Below are positions 17,849-61,668 of a DNA stretch of 64,000 nucleotides, piece after piece. The DNA lies in assembly GCF_006345805.1 (NCBI RefSeq), contig NC_042997.1, positions 7,130,001 through 7,194,000 of the forward strand. The letters run 5' to 3'. Position 1 is the stretch's first letter. Every line of letters begins with the position of its first letter. Source of the stretch: Octopus sinensis (taxonomy: Eukaryota). The position numbers were made by a program, and so were the translations under genes. The notes beneath the pieces are model-generated. The model saw only the letters and a list, made by a program, of their open reading frames with translations, was not told the origin of the DNA and did no database searches.

Positions 17849-17943
17849 TCTCTGGACTATGCATAGTTTCGGCAAACTTTTTTTAACAAATTAATTAAAT
17901 TAAATTAAATTTATTTACAACTGGCGTGCCTCGTCAGCAGAGA
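17849..17943 (-). ncRNA. Type I hammerhead ribozyme
   Basis: tctctg-CTGACGA-ggca...tgcc-GAAA-ctatgcatag-TC^cagaga: stem I 6 bp, stem II 4 bp, palindromic stem III, GUC cleavage site. Confidence 0.85.
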
Positions 17944-18424
17944 AGCCAAGGATGAACATATATCCACGAAGTGATGGTAAGGAAGCCTCAAGTCTATATG
18001 CTATACATTTTCAAAATCTACCGCAGTCGCGCGGTCTTCTCAGCAGCAAATATAAACTACTGATTTAATTTCAAAATCAGCCAAAAAATCATTAATTAAT
18101 AAAGAGCGGTTTGAGTTTGGCTGCTCTTTCTAGTGAGTCGAATGTCCTATTATGACCATTCCTTATATTTTTGAATGTAAATTATATAGTCTTTGACTAT
18201 TTCTCCTTTCTCACTGGATCAATAGTAGCGGAGAATTTTTTCTAGAATATTTTGCTACCCTATACTTATTAATTAATGATTTTTTGGCTAATTTTGAAAT
18301 TAAATCAGCAGTTTATATTTGCTGCTGAGAAGACCGCGCGATTGCGGTAGGTTTTGAAAATTTATAGCATATAGAATTGAGGCTTCCTTACCATCGCTTC
18401 GTGGATATATGTTCATCCTTGGCT

Positions 18425-18509
18425 TCTCTGCTGACGAGACATGCCAGTTGTAAATAAATTTAATTAATTTGTTTACTAAAGTTTGCCGAAACTAGGCATA
18501 GTCCAGAGA
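18425..18509 (+). ncRNA. Type I hammerhead ribozyme (second copy, stem II mismatch)
   Basis: tctctg-CTGACGA-gaca...tgcc-GAAA-ctaggcatag-TC^cagaga. Confidence 0.75.
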
Positions 18510-20057: not shown

Positions 20058-20125
<68 letters not shown>

Positions 20126-20176
20126 GTGTAGGAAGAAATGGAGCTGAACGAAGACTTAACAAAATTCCTTTTTATT

Positions 20177-20262
20177 ATTTTCTACATATGTTTCAAAGGC
20201 TGCAAAGTCCCTAATTCGGATTGAATAAGGAGTCCATTCTGCAGCCTTCTCTTCAGGAAAAT
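20177..20262 (-). ncRNA. Type I hammerhead ribozyme (inverted pLTR copy)
   Basis: Reverse complement of 21454-21539. Confidence 0.85.
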
Positions 20263-21453
20263 CCAGGAACTTAATTCTCCAACAAAATGCACAGCAAGCT
20301 TTTCGACAAACGCTCACGAGGAGCCCATGGAATAAATGGCACAAACTGTCTGTCAATATGCGTTGACGCCAGGCTGGGTGAAAGCCGACGAGAAGGTCCT
20401 TTGAGATAATTCAAGGTCAAAATCCGGTTAACAGAAGGGAGTACAGGAAAATCAAAGAGTGTGAATGTATTCTCTTTGACTGGTGTTAATATTTGAATTC
20501 GCGTTCTTCAAACGCCAGACTAATTTACTTAGTCCCATAGCGTGTTGCTTTTCCACATCACGAAACGTGGAAAAATGATTCGATATTCTAACAGCCAATT
20601 TCCACGTTTCGTGATGAGGAAAAGCAAGATGCTACGGGACTAAGTAAATTAGTCTGGCGTTTGAAGAACGCGAATTCAACTTTTAGACTGGAATGGTGAA
20701 TTTTATCGGTGTCTTTACCGTTTGATAAAGGCAAAAAAATCTGTGCTCTTTGCAACTCGGAACTCTTTCATATTCTGTTCGCCCGAGGGCACCTTGTTAA
20801 CTCGATTGTGCAACATACTTTCAGATGCCCACACTGGAAACGGCATACATTTCTTTCATACCAATGAAGTCTAATATAGTTAACCCCTTGATTTCCTAAG
20901 AAAATGAAAAACTTTTGAATTAAATTTCTAAGGGGATATCACTCCCCTGCTAGTGTAAGAACTGCTAGTTATCTAGAACTGCTGTCAGGGATGTCACGGT
21001 ATCCTGCCATGACCATTGTTGACAACCCCTCTCTCTATCAACTGGTTACAGACGAACACACCGACACAGTCTTTTCTGTTGCTTGACCATTAATATCTGC
21101 TGTATCTCTCTCCCTTGCTCCCTTCTAAACACACTGCCACACATACATAAACGCACACACACATACATGAATGCAATTTCTCACACTCAAACACGCTAGC
21201 ACTAATTCTTAAAACAATTTAAATATTAACACCAGTCATACAGAATACATTCATACTCTTTGATTTTCCTGTACTCCCCTTCTGTTAACCGGATTTTGAC
21301 CTTGAATTATCTCAACGGACCTTCTCGTCGGCTTTCACCCAACCTGGCGTCAACGCATATTGACAGACAGTTTGTGCCATTTATTCCATGGGCTCCTCGT
21401 GAGCGTTTGTCGAAAAGCTTGCTGTGCATTTTGTTGGAGAATTAAGTTCCTGG

Positions 21454-21539
21454 ATTTTCCTGAAGAGAAGGCTGCAGAATGGACTCCTTATTCAATCCGA
21501 ATTAGGGACTTTGCAGCCTTTGAAACATATGTAGAAAAT
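21454..21539 (+). ncRNA. Type I hammerhead ribozyme
   Basis: attttc-CTGAAGA-gaaggctgcag...ttgcagccttt-GAAA-catatg-TA^gaaaat: 6-bp stem I, long stem II, palindromic stem III acatatgt, GUA site. Confidence 0.85.
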
Positions 21540-21751
21540 AATAAAAAGGAATTTTGTTAAGTCTTCGTTCAGCTCCATTTCTTCCTACACTAAATAAATA
21601 AATATATAAAACTTCAAATTTCCGCACTAATGCACGGTTTTTAGACCCCATGGTCGTAACCTCAACCGTGCTTTTTCTGTTGTGATTTTTGCTACCCAGG
21701 TATCGGTTATCATTTGAATAATCCTTAATAAGATAATTCATTTATCTACTT

Positions 21752-31935: not shown

Positions 31936-31999
31936 CATAATAATAATAATGATAATAATAATAGCAGTAACAACAACAACAACAATCATAATAATAATA

Positions 32000-33282
32000 A
32001 TAACAGCAAAAACGTTTTACACAAAGCAGCAAACAGACATAACAGTAAACAGCTTTTACACCTTACAGAAAAGACCTTTTACTCATAACAGCAACACGCT
32101 TTACACATAACAACAAACATCTTTTACACATATCCAACAACTTTTAAACTTAGCAGCAAACACCTTTTACAAATAACGACAAACACCTTTACAGAGCAAA
32201 CACTTCTTACACATAAAAGCAAACACCTGTTACACTTAACAGCAAACATCTTTTACTCCTAACAGCATACACCTTTTACACATAACACAAAAGGCTTTTT
32301 ACACATAACAGCAAACATTTTTACTCATAAGAGGAAATACATTTTACGTATAGGAGCAAACAACTGTTACACACAACCGCAAACGCCTTTTATACATAAC
32401 AGCAACCAACTGTTAACATAACTGCAAGTACATTGTATCACTTACAGAAAACACCTTTTACACATTACGGCAAACGCGTTTTGCACATAACAGCAAACAC
32501 CTTTTACATATAATAGCAAACAACCTTTACGCATAACAGCAATCATCTTTTCACAACAAACACCTTATACACATAACAACAAACACCTTTAGAAATAACA
32601 GCAAATAACGTGTATACACATAACAGCAAAGAAAATAACACCAAGCACATTTTCCATGTAAACGCAAGCACCTCTTACATAACAGGTAAAACTTTTAAAC
32701 ATATAGCAAACACGTTTTACACATAACAGCGAAACCATTTACACATATCAAAAAACCTCTTTTACACATAACAGCAAACACGGTTTTACATAACAGCAAA
32801 ATCCATTTACTCATAACAGGAAACACCTAACAACTTTTATATATTACAGCAAACACTTTTTAGCATGTCAGTAAACAATTTTACACATAACAGCAAACAA
32901 AATTTAACATAACAGCAAACAATTATACACATTACAGCAAATGCATTTTACATATAACTGCAAAAGCCTTTTACGTATAACAGCAAAAACCGTTTACACG
33001 TAAGAGGAAACATCTTTTACACGTTTTAAAAATAACAGCAAACACATTTCACACATAATAGAAACCAACTTTAGACATACCAACAGACAACTTTAGCCCT
33101 AACAGCAAACATATTTTATAACTAACAACACCCATCTTTTACACATAATAGCAAACGCCTTTTACACATAACAACAAACGCGTTTTACAGACGACAGCAA
33201 ACACCTTTTTTTACACATTACGTTAAACACCTTTTACACATGACAGTAAAGACGTTTTACACATAACAGTAAACAGCTTTTT
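32000..33282. repeat. Degenerate ~25-bp minisatellite (ACACATAACAGCAAACACCTTTT)
   Basis: Dozens of tandem diverged copies of cataacagcaaac..ttttac. Confidence 0.9.
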
Positions 33283-33924: not shown

Positions 33925-36350
33925 ATCCATTCTTTATTAGCCACAAGGGTGGTCATTATAAAATATGAATGGCAAATTGAGGTTACATAAAGTATCGTGT
34001 AAAGCGCCAATAACAATGAAAAATATAAGAAACAAAATGCCTAAAAGCTGCATGATAACCCTCACGGAAAATCCGCAAGCGCCATGACCACTAGGGTAAC
34101 AGCCCTCTCCCCATCTTTCTCTCTCTCGCTCTCTCTCTCTCTCTCATCCTTGGAAACTCAAAAGCGCATGCTTAATGTAGATACGGACCATCTTCTCCCC
34201 AGGCACCCACCTTTTAACAAAATTGCTGGAAGACAGTACTTCTCTTTCAACCCTCACATTTCTTTTCAGTTGGTATCTGAAAAAGCTGATGAGGGGTAAG
34301 CCAAAGCAAAAATTTGTTTGCCTTCAGCCTTTTCAGTCTAGACCACCACACAACATATTTCTCTACAGCCACGAAACAGATGAAAATAGCCTCCCCTTGC
34401 TGGCCAAAGGAAGGTGGTGGGGAAATCATAATGTTGGAATCAGCTGACAAGCGGGTATGACCAACACATGACTGCAGGTGTTCGACATAAACCTCTATAT
34501 CAGATATACTCAGACACTGGACGAGGGCGTGCAGAACGGTTTAGTCGCTCTGCATTCATCTCGAGAAGGTCTGACTAACGGTACTTCCGTACATATAGAG
34601 TTTCTCTCGAACATGCAAAATTACTGAGCCGGTGTTAGCCAACTCTGCTCGACCATTGAAGAATGGCTTTCTCTCGGCCCATTTGTGGGTGAGATTGGCT
34701 ACCCTGCTCGTCACCTTGCTCCAGTTCTTCTCCAGTTAGAGGTCCGGTCCGAAGTAGACCCAGAGCAATTTTACGGGCCCGACAGTCCAACTTCCTACAA
34801 TGCGGTCAGTTGGCATGGATCTGCCTCTTCAGGTGCGGAGCTGCAGGCCCACCGACTTCAGCGGATTAAACTTTGTTTCCGTTATTTCCTCATATTCTTT
34901 CAAAGCAGCGCTTGACCAGGTCTATGTGCTTGTCGTCTGACACTGACGGCGAAGACGGCTGCGTATGCCATATCCTAGTTCACTTGAGATACTTTTCAAT
35001 GCCTCCAGTTTCCGAAGTAATGACTTGAGGGTCAGAACATACAGAAGAGACGAGCGTGGACACCCTTGACGAACCAAACGCATGTTGTTGAATGATTCCG
35101 ATAGGCAACCATTCACCTGATTACTGAGCAAATATCGCTGTACATGGCAGCGATCTATCCGCAAAAATCCGGACCGAAACTCGCCGCCGTGAAAACAGCC
35201 GCTAGATATTGCTGGTCAACACTATTAATGGCTTTTAACTGATATAAATTGATCAGACCCTCAACCATGCCAGGTTTCTTACTTACCCTACACACGATGT
35301 AGGGCTTGAGGTGGATGTTGTCATAGATGGACCTGTTTCGGAAGGCGCGTGTGTTTCAAGGGTTATAGCCAACCTCTCCACTAAAAATTTGGCCATAATT
35401 TTCATGTTTGCATTAAGCATTGATGAGTATAAAATTATCTAATAATTCCCTCTTCTTTGGATCCTTTCTCAACAGTAGACACCTGCCCTACAAACTTTAT
35501 TCTAGTATGCCAAACTTGTTTGCAGTACTGGTGGTGTCTCCAGTATTTTTATCTTGGCGACGCGCCGTCCCAAGTATTAGGACAAGTTCATTGTTTCGTT
35601 TTCCGAGCAAATCTGACTTCAATTGTGCCATATTTCTTACGCCTCGGCAGATATGTTAAGTCGTTCCAAATGTGTTGCAAGCATCTTTCAGCTACATTTT
35701 TCCATGGGAGTTTCTAAACGTATGTTTTTATTAAGATATAGTTTTGCACACTATGATGTATTTTTTCTATAATATCCGGAAATGTGTTTATCGAAACACA
35801 TCTTTCACGTTTTCTTTTTGAAATGGTTTTGTAGTCTTTGAGAGATTCTACAAAAACATTAATGAATTCGTTTCAAGGTTTTGTTATTGAAGCAAAACCG
35901 CAACGGTTTAATGAATTGGGTTGTTGTTGCTGTTGTTGTTATTCAGTGTTCAATGTGTTAGTGTTAGTGGTGGTAATGGGAGGATTTGGACTCACAGGTG
36001 TTACGACGCTAGCAGCGTTCATTAGCTGAATTTCCTTGTTATATTCCTTTTCTATCTCTCGTATCTTTTCTTATTTTTTCTTCTGTTGCTTAGCGTTGCA
36101 CGTGCTAGGAAGACTTTGGTCGTCCCGCTTTCTGCCTTTGAAGTCGCCTGGTGGGCGGAGACAATTAATTTTCAATCTCTTTTTGGCTGTCTTCCGACAG
36201 CACACGGAAAAATCTTCTCCAAACACATTTTTAAAAATTTTGAAATTGAAAATGAAAACATGGAAAGTTTAAATTGAAAATTCGCCCCAAAAGGGGAAAC
36301 GTCCGGTCTAATCGGGCTCAACTCGGTAAGCGGCTAGTCGGCCTGGCCAC
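33925..36350 (-). mobile_element. L1/Tx1-type LINE, internally deleted (5'UTR, ORF1 piece, RT piece, 3' end)
   Basis: ORF1 YLGRRVAKIKILETPP (35529-35576); RT QVNGCLSESF..VRQGCP.S.LLYVLTL..LLRKL (34922-35164); 3' end cccttgtggctaataaagaa. Confidence 0.75.
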
Positions 36351-45240: not shown

Positions 45241-46329
45241 ACACATGATTGACCGCTAAAGTTCTTTTAATTCCCTCACTATTTATTTCCTCGTGTTTCT
45301 TTTCTGTTAAAACGCGTAAGCTGCAAACGTAAAATATTTTCACACCTCCAGTACGTCAAATTCATGCACCTGCTTTTTCTTTATACATCTGTCTTCGTCT
45401 TTTGTTTTTCTGTAAATTTCAACTGCATATACACGCATATAAATATATGTATACATGTGTGTGTATCTATTATGTATGCATGTGTGCATGTATGGATATA
45501 TGTATATGTGTGTTTATGTATATGCATAAGAGTTTCTATGCATGAGGATATTTCTGCATAAGCAGCTAGTGTACGTATGTCTAGGTGATATTATTTGTAT
45601 CGAGGAAGAACAATGTTTTTGTTTTTTGCTAGGTGTTAGTAAGCATGGTGTGTATAAATATGTGTGGTTATTGTGAAAGAATATAATCTAAACATTGGTA
45701 AAGGTCTATATAATTTGCTTACATTAGACATCAGCAATGCGTCGAGTAATCAAACAGCCTGTTACAAAATAGACAAAAATCGTAAATCTATGATGTTGAA
45801 CTCTGCAGTAGACATTATATGTGTCACTGAACAATAACTAGCAGATTGCTGGAAGCGTTACTGTAAACATGTAACAAATAGAGTAAATGAATTTCTTATG
45901 AACATCGATTATAATGTCGACGGAGAAGAAAGAAAAACTAATGAGACTGGCCAGAGGAAAAATGAGTATCAATATTTTTTTCCTTCTGTGTCTACGTAAA
46001 ATTATTGAATGTTACTAATAAACTCAGAAGATATCAGACGGAGCGGGGTCAATATTTTGATTCATGCTGAAACTGATTACTGTGCGTATGATCGGTTGTG
46101 GTTTATTGTTTCACTCAAATTGACTTAAAAATACCGTTTCTTATAACATACAATCCCGCGTCTGTGTGTGTGTGTGTGTGTGTGTGTGCATATGTGTGTA
46201 TGTGTGTGTGCGTGGGCATGGTGTCTATGTGTTTGTGTGTATATATGTACGTGAAGTATATTTCTATATAGATATTAATGAAATATACACAAGCATTATA
46301 TGTTTATGTGCGAGTATATATATTTTCGT

Positions 46330-46664
46330 TTATTTTTTGGCTTGTTTCAGTCATTTGATTGCGACCATGATGGAGCACTGCTTTTAATCGAGAACATCGA
46401 CCCCAGGACTTATTCTTTGTACGCCTAGTACTTATTCTATCGTTCTCTTTTGCTGAAACGCTAGCTTACGGGGACGCAAACACACCAACATCGTTTCTGA
46501 AGTGATGTTGGTGATCAAACAGAGACGGTCATCTTTCAGTTTCCATCTACAAAAATCCACTCTTAAGGCTTTGGTCGGCCTGAGGCTATAGTAGAAGACA
46601 CATGCCCAAGGTGCCACGGAGTCGAACGGAACCCAAAACTATATGGTTTGTAAGCAAGCTACTT
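46330..46664 (-). mobile_element. SINE family B (octopus OR-like), body; head displaced to 49614-49650
   Basis: Reverse complement aligns with 53263-53645 from agtagcttgcttac onward. Confidence 0.85.
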
Positions 46665-47099
46665 TATTTCAAAATTTTACCATAATGACATAACATAGAG
46701 GGGGCACTACAAAACATGTGGGGACATATAATAATTAAAAATGTATACAAATAAAATATGATATTATGAATGACACGTGAAAATGAATATGAAAAAATAA
46801 AATCTAAATATTAAAATGAAAATATTAAAGTTATGAGAACATGAATATCTTGAAAATGAGAATATGAAAAGTGTGTTACTCATTCCACAAAGAGTAACAC
46901 CACTTGCTACCTCTGAGTCTTTAATCCTCTTTAGCCTCTAGCCTAGTTCTTCTTTTTCCGTTTTTACCATCACTGAGTGACAACACTCTCACCGCCATGT
47001 AGACGCAACCATTTTCATCGGGGGAGGGGTCTTGTAAATTTGTGGTTTGTGTTCTTTCTTATTTTCCTGTGGGGAAAGGTGGTGTGTGGGTTTGGTGTA

Positions 47100-47808
47100 T
47101 GGAGGTGGTGGTCTGAGTGGTCCTGAGTTGGTCTGGGATACAACATCATACTCACTGTTTTTCCTTTTCTTCCTCTTCCTTTTACTCTCTGTTACTATCC
47201 ACTCTTCCTCGTTCTTTCCGTCTGTCTGTTCTTTTCCCCCTTTTCTCCTCCGTCTCCACAACCGCTTCTTCTGTTATTTCCCTCTGCAGAGGGCAGTGTG
47301 CTCCAATGTGGACCTTTGGGCGACGTTTAAACATCGTGGATTCTGCGCTCGACCCACACTCTCTATAAATTCTCTCCTAACCTCACTTTCTCCGCCAAAC
47401 TCTCCAAAAATCTCTCCTCTGCCTGTATAATGGCGTCCAGTTATATCCTCTCCATCCCCCATTCTCCGTTTCCATGGCTTGGCGGACAGCCACCTTCTCT
47501 TCATTTCCAACGAGGACGGCTGCCAACACCCTAGCCTCCTCTATATCGGGTGGGATTCCTTCCACCTGCACCTTGGATGTCTTTCTTCCTAGATACATGG
47601 GCAGAAGCATAACATCCTCCGTTCTCGCCGCCACACTCACCAGTCTCCTCATTCCTCCACATTCCTAAACTGGACAACCTTGTTATACTTATAATTTGGC
47701 TTGATTGTTGCCTCAATGCCTTTTCTATTTTTGCCCCTTCCACCTGTTCAACCCTCTTCTCCAAGGAGCGTACTTTGTAGGTGATGGGTTTCTCTCTATG
47801 TTCTCCAT
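47100..47808 (-). pseudogene. ORF1b: second ORF1-like copy with decayed knuckle
   Basis: ..KVRSLEKRVEQVEGAKIEKAL..LLPMYLGRKTSKVQVEGIPPDI..PRC..KVHIGAHC (47293-47333), then a Lys/Glu-rich tail. Confidence 0.7.
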
Positions 47809-48299
47809 GATTCTTTTAGGCGGCGACAACTTCACATCGCCGGCTACCTTCTGTGTCAATCTACTCCTTCAATCTAGCCAGGTCCGCTTCACTTCTCTTC
47901 ACCTCCGCAGCCTCAGCAAAACACATTACATCTGCAATTCTAAGTCGGGGCTCCAAAAAGCAAAACTATATTGGTCCTTGTGAAAGGAGTCCGTCACTTT
48001 GAAAATATCATTCTCCATTATGAACTCCACAGGTAACTGCGGGGGCCAATCCGGGTCTTCAGTCCAGGACAGGATCATCTCCCTCCGACCCTCTAGCTAC
48101 TTCCCAAAGCTCCCTTATCATAATGGGAGGGGGGCCTCAGTTTTCTCCGTCGGTAGCACAAATCCCACCGACGAGATTTCAGGTCATGCCGCAGTGTACT
48201 ACTAACCGGCGGCAATACTCCATTCTTCATCTTCTTTTTTTTTCTACCTTGTGCTATGGGAGGGTGTTGTTCCTCCGCTTTATCCGGGGATCTTCTCTC

Positions 48300-49014
48300 C
48301 CTTCCGCAGATTTGGGGTCCTTCGGTGAGCAACCTTCTTCCTTTTTTCCCTTTCTTCGAGGAGATCTACAGCTTCTCGACTGCATCCATCTCTCCCTCCA
48401 AATGAGGATGGGGTGCTAATTTAATTAACTGCTCCAGGACCCTACTTTGGTCCTGGGGACAGTTACTCTTAATATGGCTTGGTTCCAGGCACAGATGACA
48501 CTTGGTGGAGGGAGACCCTCAAGTATCATGGGTTACCTGCAACCGGAAATTTTCAGAAGATCTGGAAATACCAGATCTTTAGCGGCTGATTGGGTCTATA
48601 GTGTCAAAACCGCTTTTTACCCCACCTAATCAGCAGCCGGCAACAATTTCACATTTAAAAGCTTGGGCTCGCTCCCACCCAGACCCCGGCGGATAGTATC
48701 TTCTATCCATTCCGGTACAATGCCCGCTGGCAGCCCACAGACCCAAGATCTCATTAATTTCTTCCCACAATATGTGGGAAGAAACAGAATCTCTTGCCCT
48801 TCTAAGAGCTGGCTCGCAAATTTGCGAGCCATCTTAGTGGTGTCAATATCAGCCACACCGTTGTATATCTAACACCCATGGAAATAAACTTAATAGTTGG
48901 CAATTATTCTGCCGACTCTTTTTCTATTTCTCTCTTAGGAAAGCCCACGATGGTGTCCAGTGACTTATAATAAGTCCTTAACACCACCGTTCTTTCCTCT
49001 AAGTTTTTAGCCAT
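48300..49014 (-). pseudogene. ORF1a: L1/Tx1-type ORF1-like with CCHC zinc knuckle
   Basis: MAKNLEERTVVLRT..LFLPTYCGKKLMRSWVCGLPAGI..CHLCLEPSHIKSNC (C-X2-C-X4-H-X4-C at 48459-48500); stops and frameshifts. Confidence 0.7.
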
Positions 49015-49613
49015 TGTGTGGGTGGGATGATTTCCCATTGCAACGGAGTGTTCAATTTCTTCGCCATTCTTTGAAGAAAAAGTTCAGAAAAAGCAACAAA
49101 AGTCCAAACAAAGTCAAAAGAAAACAGTTCGAAGGGCGACAAAGAAGAGCAGAAAGACAAATAAGACTAAAAGAAAGAAGGAAGGAAGACAGTTCAAAAC
49201 ACGGCAACACACAATTCGGGCTAACCGTACTCTTGGCCAACAGGTAATCCAAAAAGTACTCCAAAATTAAACTGACACACAGCTTCAAAAAATATTCGCC
49301 ACAAATTGGTAGAAAGTAAGAATTTTTTTCATAAAACATTTTCACAATTTTTGGAGGAGGGATACGCCCCCAGAAGAACACAATTCTCAAAATTCAATGA
49401 GACAGCGCAACTATAGTCAGACAAAGGCCTCGGAACTCAGTAAGGATTTCTTGTTCGAAAAAAAAGGACAACAAACAACAAACCCCCACTGAATCTCCCA
49501 AAAAACAAATGTCTTACCTTATTGTTGCGCCTTCAATGTTCTTCAATTCAAGACCGTTGCAAAGCAACGTCTTCACAACACCAGTGCAGTAGTAAACAAA
49601 CTAACGCATGCGC

Positions 49614-49650
49614 GTAAGCGAGCTGCTTACCACACGGCAACACCTGCATC
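49614..49650 (-). mobile_element. 5' head of the interrupted family B SINE
   Basis: Reverse complement gatgcaggtgttgccgtgtggtaagcagctcgcttac matches the family B head. Confidence 0.8.
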
Positions 49651-51298: not shown

Positions 51299-51705
51299 AG
51301 GTGCAGGTATGGCTGTGTAATAAGAAGATTGCTTCCAAACCACATGGCTCCGGGCTCGGTCCCACTGCGTGCCAACTTGGGTAGGTGTCTTCTACTCTAG
51401 ACTCGGCCAGGTCAAAGCCTTTTGAATGCATTTGTTAGACGGAAACTGAAAGAGTCCCGTCGTATATATTTATATGTATATTATTATATGTGTTTGTACT
51501 TGTCTCCACGTCCAAGCATTGACAACTAGTGTTAGTACTGCTGTGTTTATATCCATGTAACATAGTGGGTCGGTAAAAGAGTTCGACGAAATAAATACCA
51601 GGATCAAAGGAAAAGTAATGGTATTCGCTACATTCGACTATAAATTCTTGAAGGCCTACCCCGGGATGGCGGCAGTATAATGACTGAAATAAAGAAATAA
51701 AAGAT
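51299..51705 (+). mobile_element. SINE family B, diverged
   Basis: aggtgcaggtatggctgtgtaataag..cccactgcgtg..tagacggaaactgaaag..atgactgaaa. Confidence 0.85.
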
Positions 51706-53262: not shown

Positions 53263-53648
53263 AGGCGTAGGAGTGGTTGTATAGTAAGTAGCTTGCTTAC
53301 CAACCACATGGATCCGGGTTCAGTCCCACCACGTGGCACCTTGGGCAAATGCCTTTTTCTATAGCCTTGGGCCGACCAAAGCCTTGTGAGTGGATTTGGT
53401 AGACGGAAACTGAAATACATATGTGTATGTGTATTTGTGTGTCTGTGTTTGTCCTCCCAACATCGCTTGAGAACTGATGCTGGTATGTTTACGTCCCCGT
53501 CACTTAGCGGTTCGTCAAAAGAGACCGATAGAATAAGTACTAGGCTTACAAAGAATAAGTCCTGGGGTCGATTTGCTTGACTAAAGGCGGTGTTCCAGCA
53601 TGGCCACAGTCACATGACTGAAACAAGTAAAAGACTAAAACAAAAGAG
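53263..53648 (+). mobile_element. SINE family B, well preserved full copy
   Basis: tRNA-like head (ggttcagtccc B box), ccttgggcaa core, internal (TG)n, tail ccagcatggccacagtcacatgactgaaacaagtaaaag. Confidence 0.9.
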
Positions 53649-61088: not shown

Positions 61089-61369
61089 AGACGTAAGAGT
61101 GGCTGTGTGAGTATAGGCGTGAGAGTAGCTGTGTAGTAATTAGCTTGCTTACAAACTACATGTTTCCTGTTGCAATTCCAGTGCGTGGCACATTGGGCAG
61201 GTGTATTCTACTATAGCCTCTGGCCAACCAAAGCCTTGTGAGTGGATTTGGTAGACGGAAACTGAAAGAAGCCTCTTCTTCCCTTCCTTCCTGAGCGTCC
61301 AATAATACTATATTTGTTCTACGTCCTCGCGTTGTTGTGATTTTTCTTTGTGGTTTCATGTTTGGATTA

Positions 61370-61418
<49 letters not shown>

Positions 61419-61668
61419 TATATATATTATATATATATATATGTATGTATGTATGTGTGTGTATATGTTTGTGTGTTTGTGTCCTTCCCCCCATCGCTTT
61501 GCAACCGATGCTCATGAGTTTACGTCCCCGTTTCCTAACCGTTCGGCAAAACAGACCGATAGAATTAGTACAAGACTTATAAAGAATAAAACCTGGGGTC
61601 GATGTATTCGACTAAACGCGGTGCTCCAGCATGGCCACAGTCTAATGATTGAAACAATTAAAAGAGAG
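61089..61668 (+). mobile_element. SINE family B with duplicated head and a ~100-bp foreign insert
   Basis: Family B sequence; insert 61275-61372 matches 5290-5385. Confidence 0.85.

Follow-up and report, generated by a model that had tools for sequence, protein, structure and literature searches.

The window analysed here, a 64,000-nt stretch of the Octopus sinensis genome (assembly GCF_006345805.1, contig NC_042997.1, positions 7,130,001 to 7,194,000), contains a SINE that is split by an insert carrying two ORF1-like regions, and the question raised by this locus is whether the insert is a mobile element in its own right. An earlier note proposed that a non-autonomous element with two tandem ORF1 genes had transposed as a unit into a SINE head. 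The analysis presented here leads to another reading, held with considerable confidence, namely that two separate ORF1-only retroelements with a fixed insertion site in the SINE were fused on this one occasion into an insert that is now dead, and that such elements are likely to use the endonuclease and reverse transcriptase (RT) of a LINE inserting at the same site.

On the minus strand, the SINE head is followed by a 2949-nt insert and then by the SINE body (Table 1). Alignment to an intact SINE copy, of which positions 4-37 and 23-407 correspond to the head and the body, respectively, with an overlap of 15 positions, bore out the split SINE and its 15-nt flanking repeat, the two 15-mers differing at 2 positions. 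A pattern search with the window variant of the 5' 15-mer gave 4 matches, and both changes occurred together in one other copy, a small sample for the inheritance of the mismatches. ORF1a starts at 49067 on the minus strand, and its reading frame contains several stops and at least 3 frame changes. The family B part of the insert is composed of an ORF1b remnant, a 3' UTR, a terminal hairpin and AAATAAA, with ORF1b retaining an LPMYLGRK motif and a decayed knuckle among stops and frame changes, and lacking a start codon. The CX2CX4HX4C knuckle of ORF1a, the ORF1b motifs and the AATAAA 3' end had been read correctly from the sequence in the earlier note, as had the lack of endonuclease and RT, since matches of an ORF2 query to the window were confined to 34.2-35.5 kb and none lay inside the insert. 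The 5' UTR, put at about 600 nt, measures 546 nt, and the two ORF1 genes were recovered as remnants, neither of which is open. Both ORF1 frames are dead, and the window locus itself is debris.

Table 1. Window coordinates of the split SINE, the parts of its insert and the neighbouring LINE.
Feature	Coordinates	Strand	Basis
SINE head (positions 4-37), with the target 15-mer at its end as the 5' copy (49614-49628)	49614..49647	-	alignment to intact SINE
ORF1-only element of family A, positions 1-1696 (full length about 2023), final ~330 nt absent	47932..49613	-	79% to nearest copies
ORF1a remnant with stops and frameshifts, C-terminus lost at the join; two RRM-like domains and a CCHC knuckle predicted in family members	47932..49067	-	
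CX2CX4HX4C zinc knuckle of ORF1a, not in frame with the start	48459..48500	-	
A/B join, found solely here, without target duplicate and out of frame	47925..47935	-	
ORF1-only element of family B (full length about 1471), present from ~185 through its 3' end	46665..47931	-	80% to nearest copy
SINE body (positions 23-407), with the target 15-mer at its start as the 3' copy (46650-46664)	46329..46664	-	alignment to intact SINE
L1-group LINE, heavily internally deleted, not part of the SINE-site system; family ends in ATT/ATC microsatellites	33930..36350	-	

The insert was searched against the host genome (2.7 Gb), and the 53 matches obtained from the best 40 of 2149 candidates covered, the locus itself aside, either positions 1-1683 or positions 1685-2949. 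It corresponds to positions 1-1696 of a family A copy (L002, 2023 nt) followed by positions 185-1456 of a family B copy (L037, 1471 nt). Family A copies elsewhere continue into their own 330-nt 3' end, family B copies elsewhere have their own 185-nt 5' end including the start codon, and dozens of copies of either half stand by themselves with ends of their own. The ORF1s of the two families are 27% identical. A 301-nt query across the join gave 40 matches, of which one, the window locus, spanned the join, and none of 323 other loci contained it. In the insert, 1.7 kb from the start of family A (ORF1-only, about 2.0 kb) have been fused, as a one-off, to 1.27 kb from the end of family B (ORF1-only, about 1.5 kb). 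Because the join is unique and the halves have separate ends elsewhere, a double-ORF1 family is refuted in this assembly; the search for further copies with the ORF1a-ORF1b layout led, within these 40 matches and 323 loci, back to the window locus only. That such an element was mobile as one unit is barely credible, for although a single target pair encloses both ORF1 remnants, a second copy of the join was not found, ORF1b is out of frame and without a start, and the halves have their own ends at other loci. The remainder of the earlier proposal, that of non-autonomous, ORF1-only elements targeting SINE heads, is strongly supported for both parent families.

The one-off fusion most likely began as a stack of A then B, or as a truncated B entering behind A, with about 0.5 kb lost across the join. 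In such a stack, the deletion would have removed 327 nt of A, a target copy and 184 nt of B, and it would need no rare event, since stacks of complete units are common. An unlikely but still serious possibility is fusion in a single step, in which reverse transcription would have begun on family B RNA and switched template to family A RNA before a single insertion. This is in keeping with the one target pair around the whole insert, with the similar distance of the A and B parts from their nearest kin (79% and 80% identity, respectively) and with the further chimeras known in the genome (L052, L014, and L055), whereas the abundance of complete-unit stacks, A before B included, and the scarcity of homology at the join argue against it. 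As the microhomology amounts to at most 2 nt, deletion and template switching are indistinguishable from the join itself. Splicing was rejected as its origin, a donor being absent at the end of the A part. It is also quite improbable that the join is an assembly error merging two repeat copies: although positions 47832-47962 were unbridged among the contig pieces listed from four other runs, both halves were 98-100% alike in other samples, in 3 of the 4 runs a contig bridged the 5' junction into the flank seen here, and the halves have no long common homology that could mislead an assembler. The window locus, about 20% from its nearest kin, is present in other samples. Separately, ORF1s of a third type (family C) and additional chimeras were observed at L052 (480-1290), L005 (3540-4400), L014, and L055; in one form of chimera the 5' part comes from C and the 3' end from B, and in the other an A body has been fused to a 5' end of B type.

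The SINE site is not particular to this locus. Among 57 loci found by element sequence, the 3' end could be mapped in 37, and in 32 of these the A or B end lay at the SINE target motif (2.1% by chance), the 5 remaining ends representing one decayed SINE (L024) and four other flanks. A or B copies with a 3' end off the SINE site were noted at L006, L010, L020, and L032, that of L010 continuing into an ATG repeat. Exact searches gave 327 occurrences of the 31-nt 3' junction, 14 of the 30-nt 5' junction and 52,602 of the empty 33-nt site, and none of the reversed-pattern control in any of the three. In 6 of the first 30 of the 327 junction loci (L105, L112, L113, L116, L118, and L120), short 5'-truncated pieces are joined directly to the SINE head. 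Families A and B share a single, fixed point of insertion within an abundant SINE, also when 5'-truncated, and they show the fixed 3' end, variable 5' truncation and short target duplication of target-primed retrotransposition. Three further copies of the target SINE in the window (51300-51503, 53264-53639, and 61123-61666) have an unoccupied site.

A tRNA origin of the SINE head is weakly suggested by its sequence. ARAGORN called a tRNA in 0 of 6 heads by default and in 2 of 6 with relaxed settings, compared with 1 of 60 shuffles; calls obtained with -ps70 (6 of 6 heads) were dropped, as 37 of 60 shuffles were also called. Among 20 host tRNAs, the best match of the head was to Lys (z 4.7), with others reaching up to z 4.3. 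The target sequence was present in none of 20 distinct host tRNA sequences (6 amino-acid types), and Rfam searches of the element loci and the intact SINE returned low-complexity chance matches only, with no match to tRNA.

A candidate partner for these families was traced from one of the 30 junction loci, which ended in an RT gene and whose upstream sequence led to a 5443-nt LINE situated between SINE head and body and encoding, by Pfam, ORF1 (zf-CCHC) and ORF2 (Exo_endo_phos, RVT_1, and zf-RVT). All 30 best copies have their 3' end at the SINE site (28 precede the SINE body and 2 an ORF1-only element), and 19 of 20 copies start at a SINE head. Young copies are 97-99% alike, and older relatives (about 75%) are found at the same SINE site. 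The combination of ORF1 and ORF2, an APE endonuclease, RT and a C-terminal zinc finger places the LINE in the L1 group; of the solved structures, that of L1 is the nearest to its RT (E 1e-44 for L1 ORF2p vs 1e-19 for R2), and a relative at 63% is named from Argonauta. Sequence-specific insertion and a CCHC knuckle in ORF1 are typical of the Tx1 clade, and the LINE displays both; no named Tx1 reference was found among the 120 homologues listed for it. The LINE is the likely source of endonuclease and RT for the ORF1-only families, for which we infer mobilisation in trans. The window copy (about 80% to its nearest kin) is much older than the young LINE, and its insertion would be the work of an older member of the LINE lineage, not of the young family.

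The sequence common to the LINE and the ORF1-only families is limited to the last ~45 nt. Of 93 distinct 3' ends, 66 contain a 4-bp GC-rich stem there, compared with 8% of shuffled ends, and a few double-sided changes were seen. At the 5' side, the 19 parsed LINE copies include 10 on AAC-type targets, which show a clean 5' copy, and 9 on other targets, 8 of which still carry CTAAC, with one extra base in 6 of these. In the A2 subfamily, as read from printed junctions, all 7 copies on other targets carry GCTAA at the 5' side, 4 of them with an extra base, compared with 1 of 13 on AAC targets. Because this signature persists on non-AAC targets in both the LINE and A2, the 5' 'duplicate' appears to be partly carried by the element RNA. 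Of the 15-bp target-site duplication proposed for the window, the pair of 15-mers accordingly stands, but not its reading as a pure target duplication, the 5' copy being partly element-borne in young copies. Head-to-tail stacks are also found: a mixed stack reads head, B, A, A2, body (L285), A precedes B at L265 and L284, B precedes A at L264, L266, L279, L283, and L288, and an ORF1-only element adjoins the LINE at L179, L194, L245, L261, and L268.

An element-borne 5' signature might also be expected if there were no SINE targeting and a few composite masters of SINE plus insert had been copied whole, a hitchhiking explanation that is considered very improbable. The partial inheritance of the 5' target copy, as in the CTAAC-bearing LINE copies, speaks for it. 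Against it, truncated pieces abut SINE heads, unrelated families use the common site, stacks arise at the regenerated site, and SINE flanks are more diverged than the elements, the last 150 nt of the LINE being 98.8% alike vs 91.7% for the flanks in 27 copies (two stacked flanks and one interrupted flank dropped). The direct joining of truncated pieces to SINE heads points instead to independent target-primed insertion.

Families A and B have the defined ends, the one ORF1 and the lack of ORF2 of HAL1-like elements, and have amplified in this ORF1-only form, with subfamilies 90-97% alike. A search for ORF2 on the same strand found none in 50 loci of A and 30 of B, where a single match lay on the opposite strand (L017), and none in 30 A2 loci or in 60 further loci (L231-L290). 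These loci stem from genome searches that score the best 40-150 candidates, and a parent of A or B with an RT could lie beyond them. In this survey, ORF2 was encountered only at L291, beside ORF1s 41-45% alike. In the array at the latter locus (G000:C10440:800-9000), two ORF1-only units accompany the end of an RT-bearing LINE and a further LINE, whose family is not the SINE-targeting one. Another ORF1-only family, about 44% to the B ORF1, was observed at L281-L282 (G000:C6:70543300-70561000) and L290 in near-identical 1.75-kb head-to-tail arrays of at least 9 and at least 6 units, respectively; it has a different 3' end and is not at the SINE head.

The ORF1 of these RT-less families is under purifying selection. 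For variants common to at least 3 copies, pN/pS is 0.19 in 42 A loci and 0.20 in 24 B loci, whereas private variants give 0.93 (A) and 0.81 (B): it is the master lineages that are under selection, and inserted copies decay. The A2 subfamily is young, with 30 of 30 copies ending at the SINE site, and 5 of the 30 keep a frame of 411-414 aa. The ORF1s of A and B are 27% and 39% identical, respectively, to that of the partner LINE. In an ORF1 tree of 38 rows, rooted at the midpoint and restricted to rows of at least 135 aa, A separates from both B and the partner as a clade (100/100) on a long branch, which indicates that the A ORF1s are not recent deletions of the partner LINE. An origin of A and B as HAL1-like derivatives of the identified partner was rejected on the low ORF1 identity, the separate clades and the restriction of common sequence to the 3' end. 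The ORF1 is predicted to fold into two RRM-like domains and a knuckle (pLDDT 81), a model resting on many concordant RRM matches, none strong alone, in structure searches (Z about 8; Foldseek TM about 0.27 over the whole model). In the atlas, ORF1 fell into zf-CCHC and ZCCHC3-type clusters. A family A ORF1 at L019 is annotated as a host 'uncharacterized protein' (P0001, the L019 translation).

The window also contains an L1-group LINE at 33.9-36.4 kb, to which the insert had been linked by an ORF1 motif. Distant ORF1 homology was confirmed, but not membership of the same targeting family: 18 of 21 distinct 3' ends of this LINE family run into ATT/ATC repeats and 0 lie at the SINE. It was rejected as partner of the insert on account of this other target. 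A repeat search of the whole window returned microsatellites for the most part. Other repeats observed are a 332-nt inverted repeat (20108-20439 and 21277-21608) with 99% complementarity and a spacing of 837 nt, which may represent a young DNA transposon, a 205-nt inverted repeat (17898-18102 and 18266-18470; 95% complementary) and a degenerate 23-nt tandem repeat of about 32 copies (31990-33260).

As a working model, the LINE endonuclease would nick the SINE between its A-box-like and B-box-like motifs, and ORF2 would recognise the common 3' hairpin and use the nick as the starting point for reverse transcription of the RNA. The second join may be aided by a few target-derived bases at the RNA 5' end, while each element's own ORF1 would package its own RNA in cis. 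Each insertion would restore the target site, so that elements stack. A broader reading, to which a guarded preference is given, is that of a three-tier octopus system, in which a LINE specialised on the promoter region of a dominant SINE would be accompanied by an old, selected guild of ORF1-only elements without an RT-bearing parent, outliving successive partner LINEs by keeping only the common 3' hairpin; insertions would split the SINE promoter boxes, regenerate the site and build mixed arrays and chimeras.

A young site-specific APE-type LINE, with its short target present more than 50,000 times, is useful for the study of how the endonuclease reads sequence and of the 5' join. The ORF1-only families provide a case of ORF1 kept by selection without ORF2, beyond fly telomeres and mammals, and the old question of why half-LINEs retain ORF1 becomes testable. 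For annotation, such ORF1s are labelled as host genes, and arrays and fusions can be mistaken for multi-ORF elements.

A literature search found no report of a SINE-targeting LINE or of a cephalopod ORF1-only family in openly accessible sources, subscription journals, Repbase and Dfam lying outside its scope; Repbase and Dfam may contain the families. An octopus repeat survey reports L1-Tx1 families, with insertion targets unmentioned in its text or in one supplement (PMC13282606), and the available portions of PMC4758252, PMC8869645, PMC8967140, PMC11203168, PMC3747384, and PMC3531059 hold nothing on the SINE-site system. Close parallels are offered by the Tx1-Mar LINEs and SINEU-3 of crocodilians, which share a site in a Mariner element and form tandem insertions (Kojima 2015, PMC4494074), and the octopus system resembles such a pair with HAL1 or HeT-A added. 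In both cases, a LINE, of Tx1 type in crocodilians and possibly so in octopus, prefers a site within another transposable element, non-autonomous elements use it too and tandem insertions enclose a target duplicate, truncated copies having also been used in the crocodilian study against hitchhiking (PMC4494074). The target there is a Mariner DNA transposon and not a SINE head, and the passengers are non-coding snRNA-derived SINEs, whereas those in octopus are protein-coding ORF1-only families (PMC4494074). The Kibi and Koshi microsatellite-targeting Tx1 elements described in the same source resemble the LINE at 33.9-36.4 kb, with a different repeat unit (PMC4494074).

HAL1 (half-L1) of mammals is non-autonomous, has ORF1 only and is described as having several independent origins (PMC5753468), and the octopus families are likewise non-autonomous with ORF1 only. 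HAL1 derives from mammalian L1 and is not known to insert site-specifically. The octopus families do so, and their ORF1 is predicted to comprise two RRM-like domains and a CCHC knuckle. Assignment to HAL1 proper was rejected, the host being an octopus and ORF1 matching zf-CCHC and two-RRM folds, not mammalian L1 descent. The telomeric ORF1-only lineages of Drosophila (HeT-A and others) rely on the ORF2 of other families and have founded new ORF1-only families (PMC13534243). They resemble the octopus families as ORF1-only lineages whose copies line up head to tail at a target of a fixed kind, but they belong to the Jockey clade, occupy chromosome ends and serve a host function (PMC13534243), whereas the octopus system involves the L1 group and tens of thousands of internal SINE sites.
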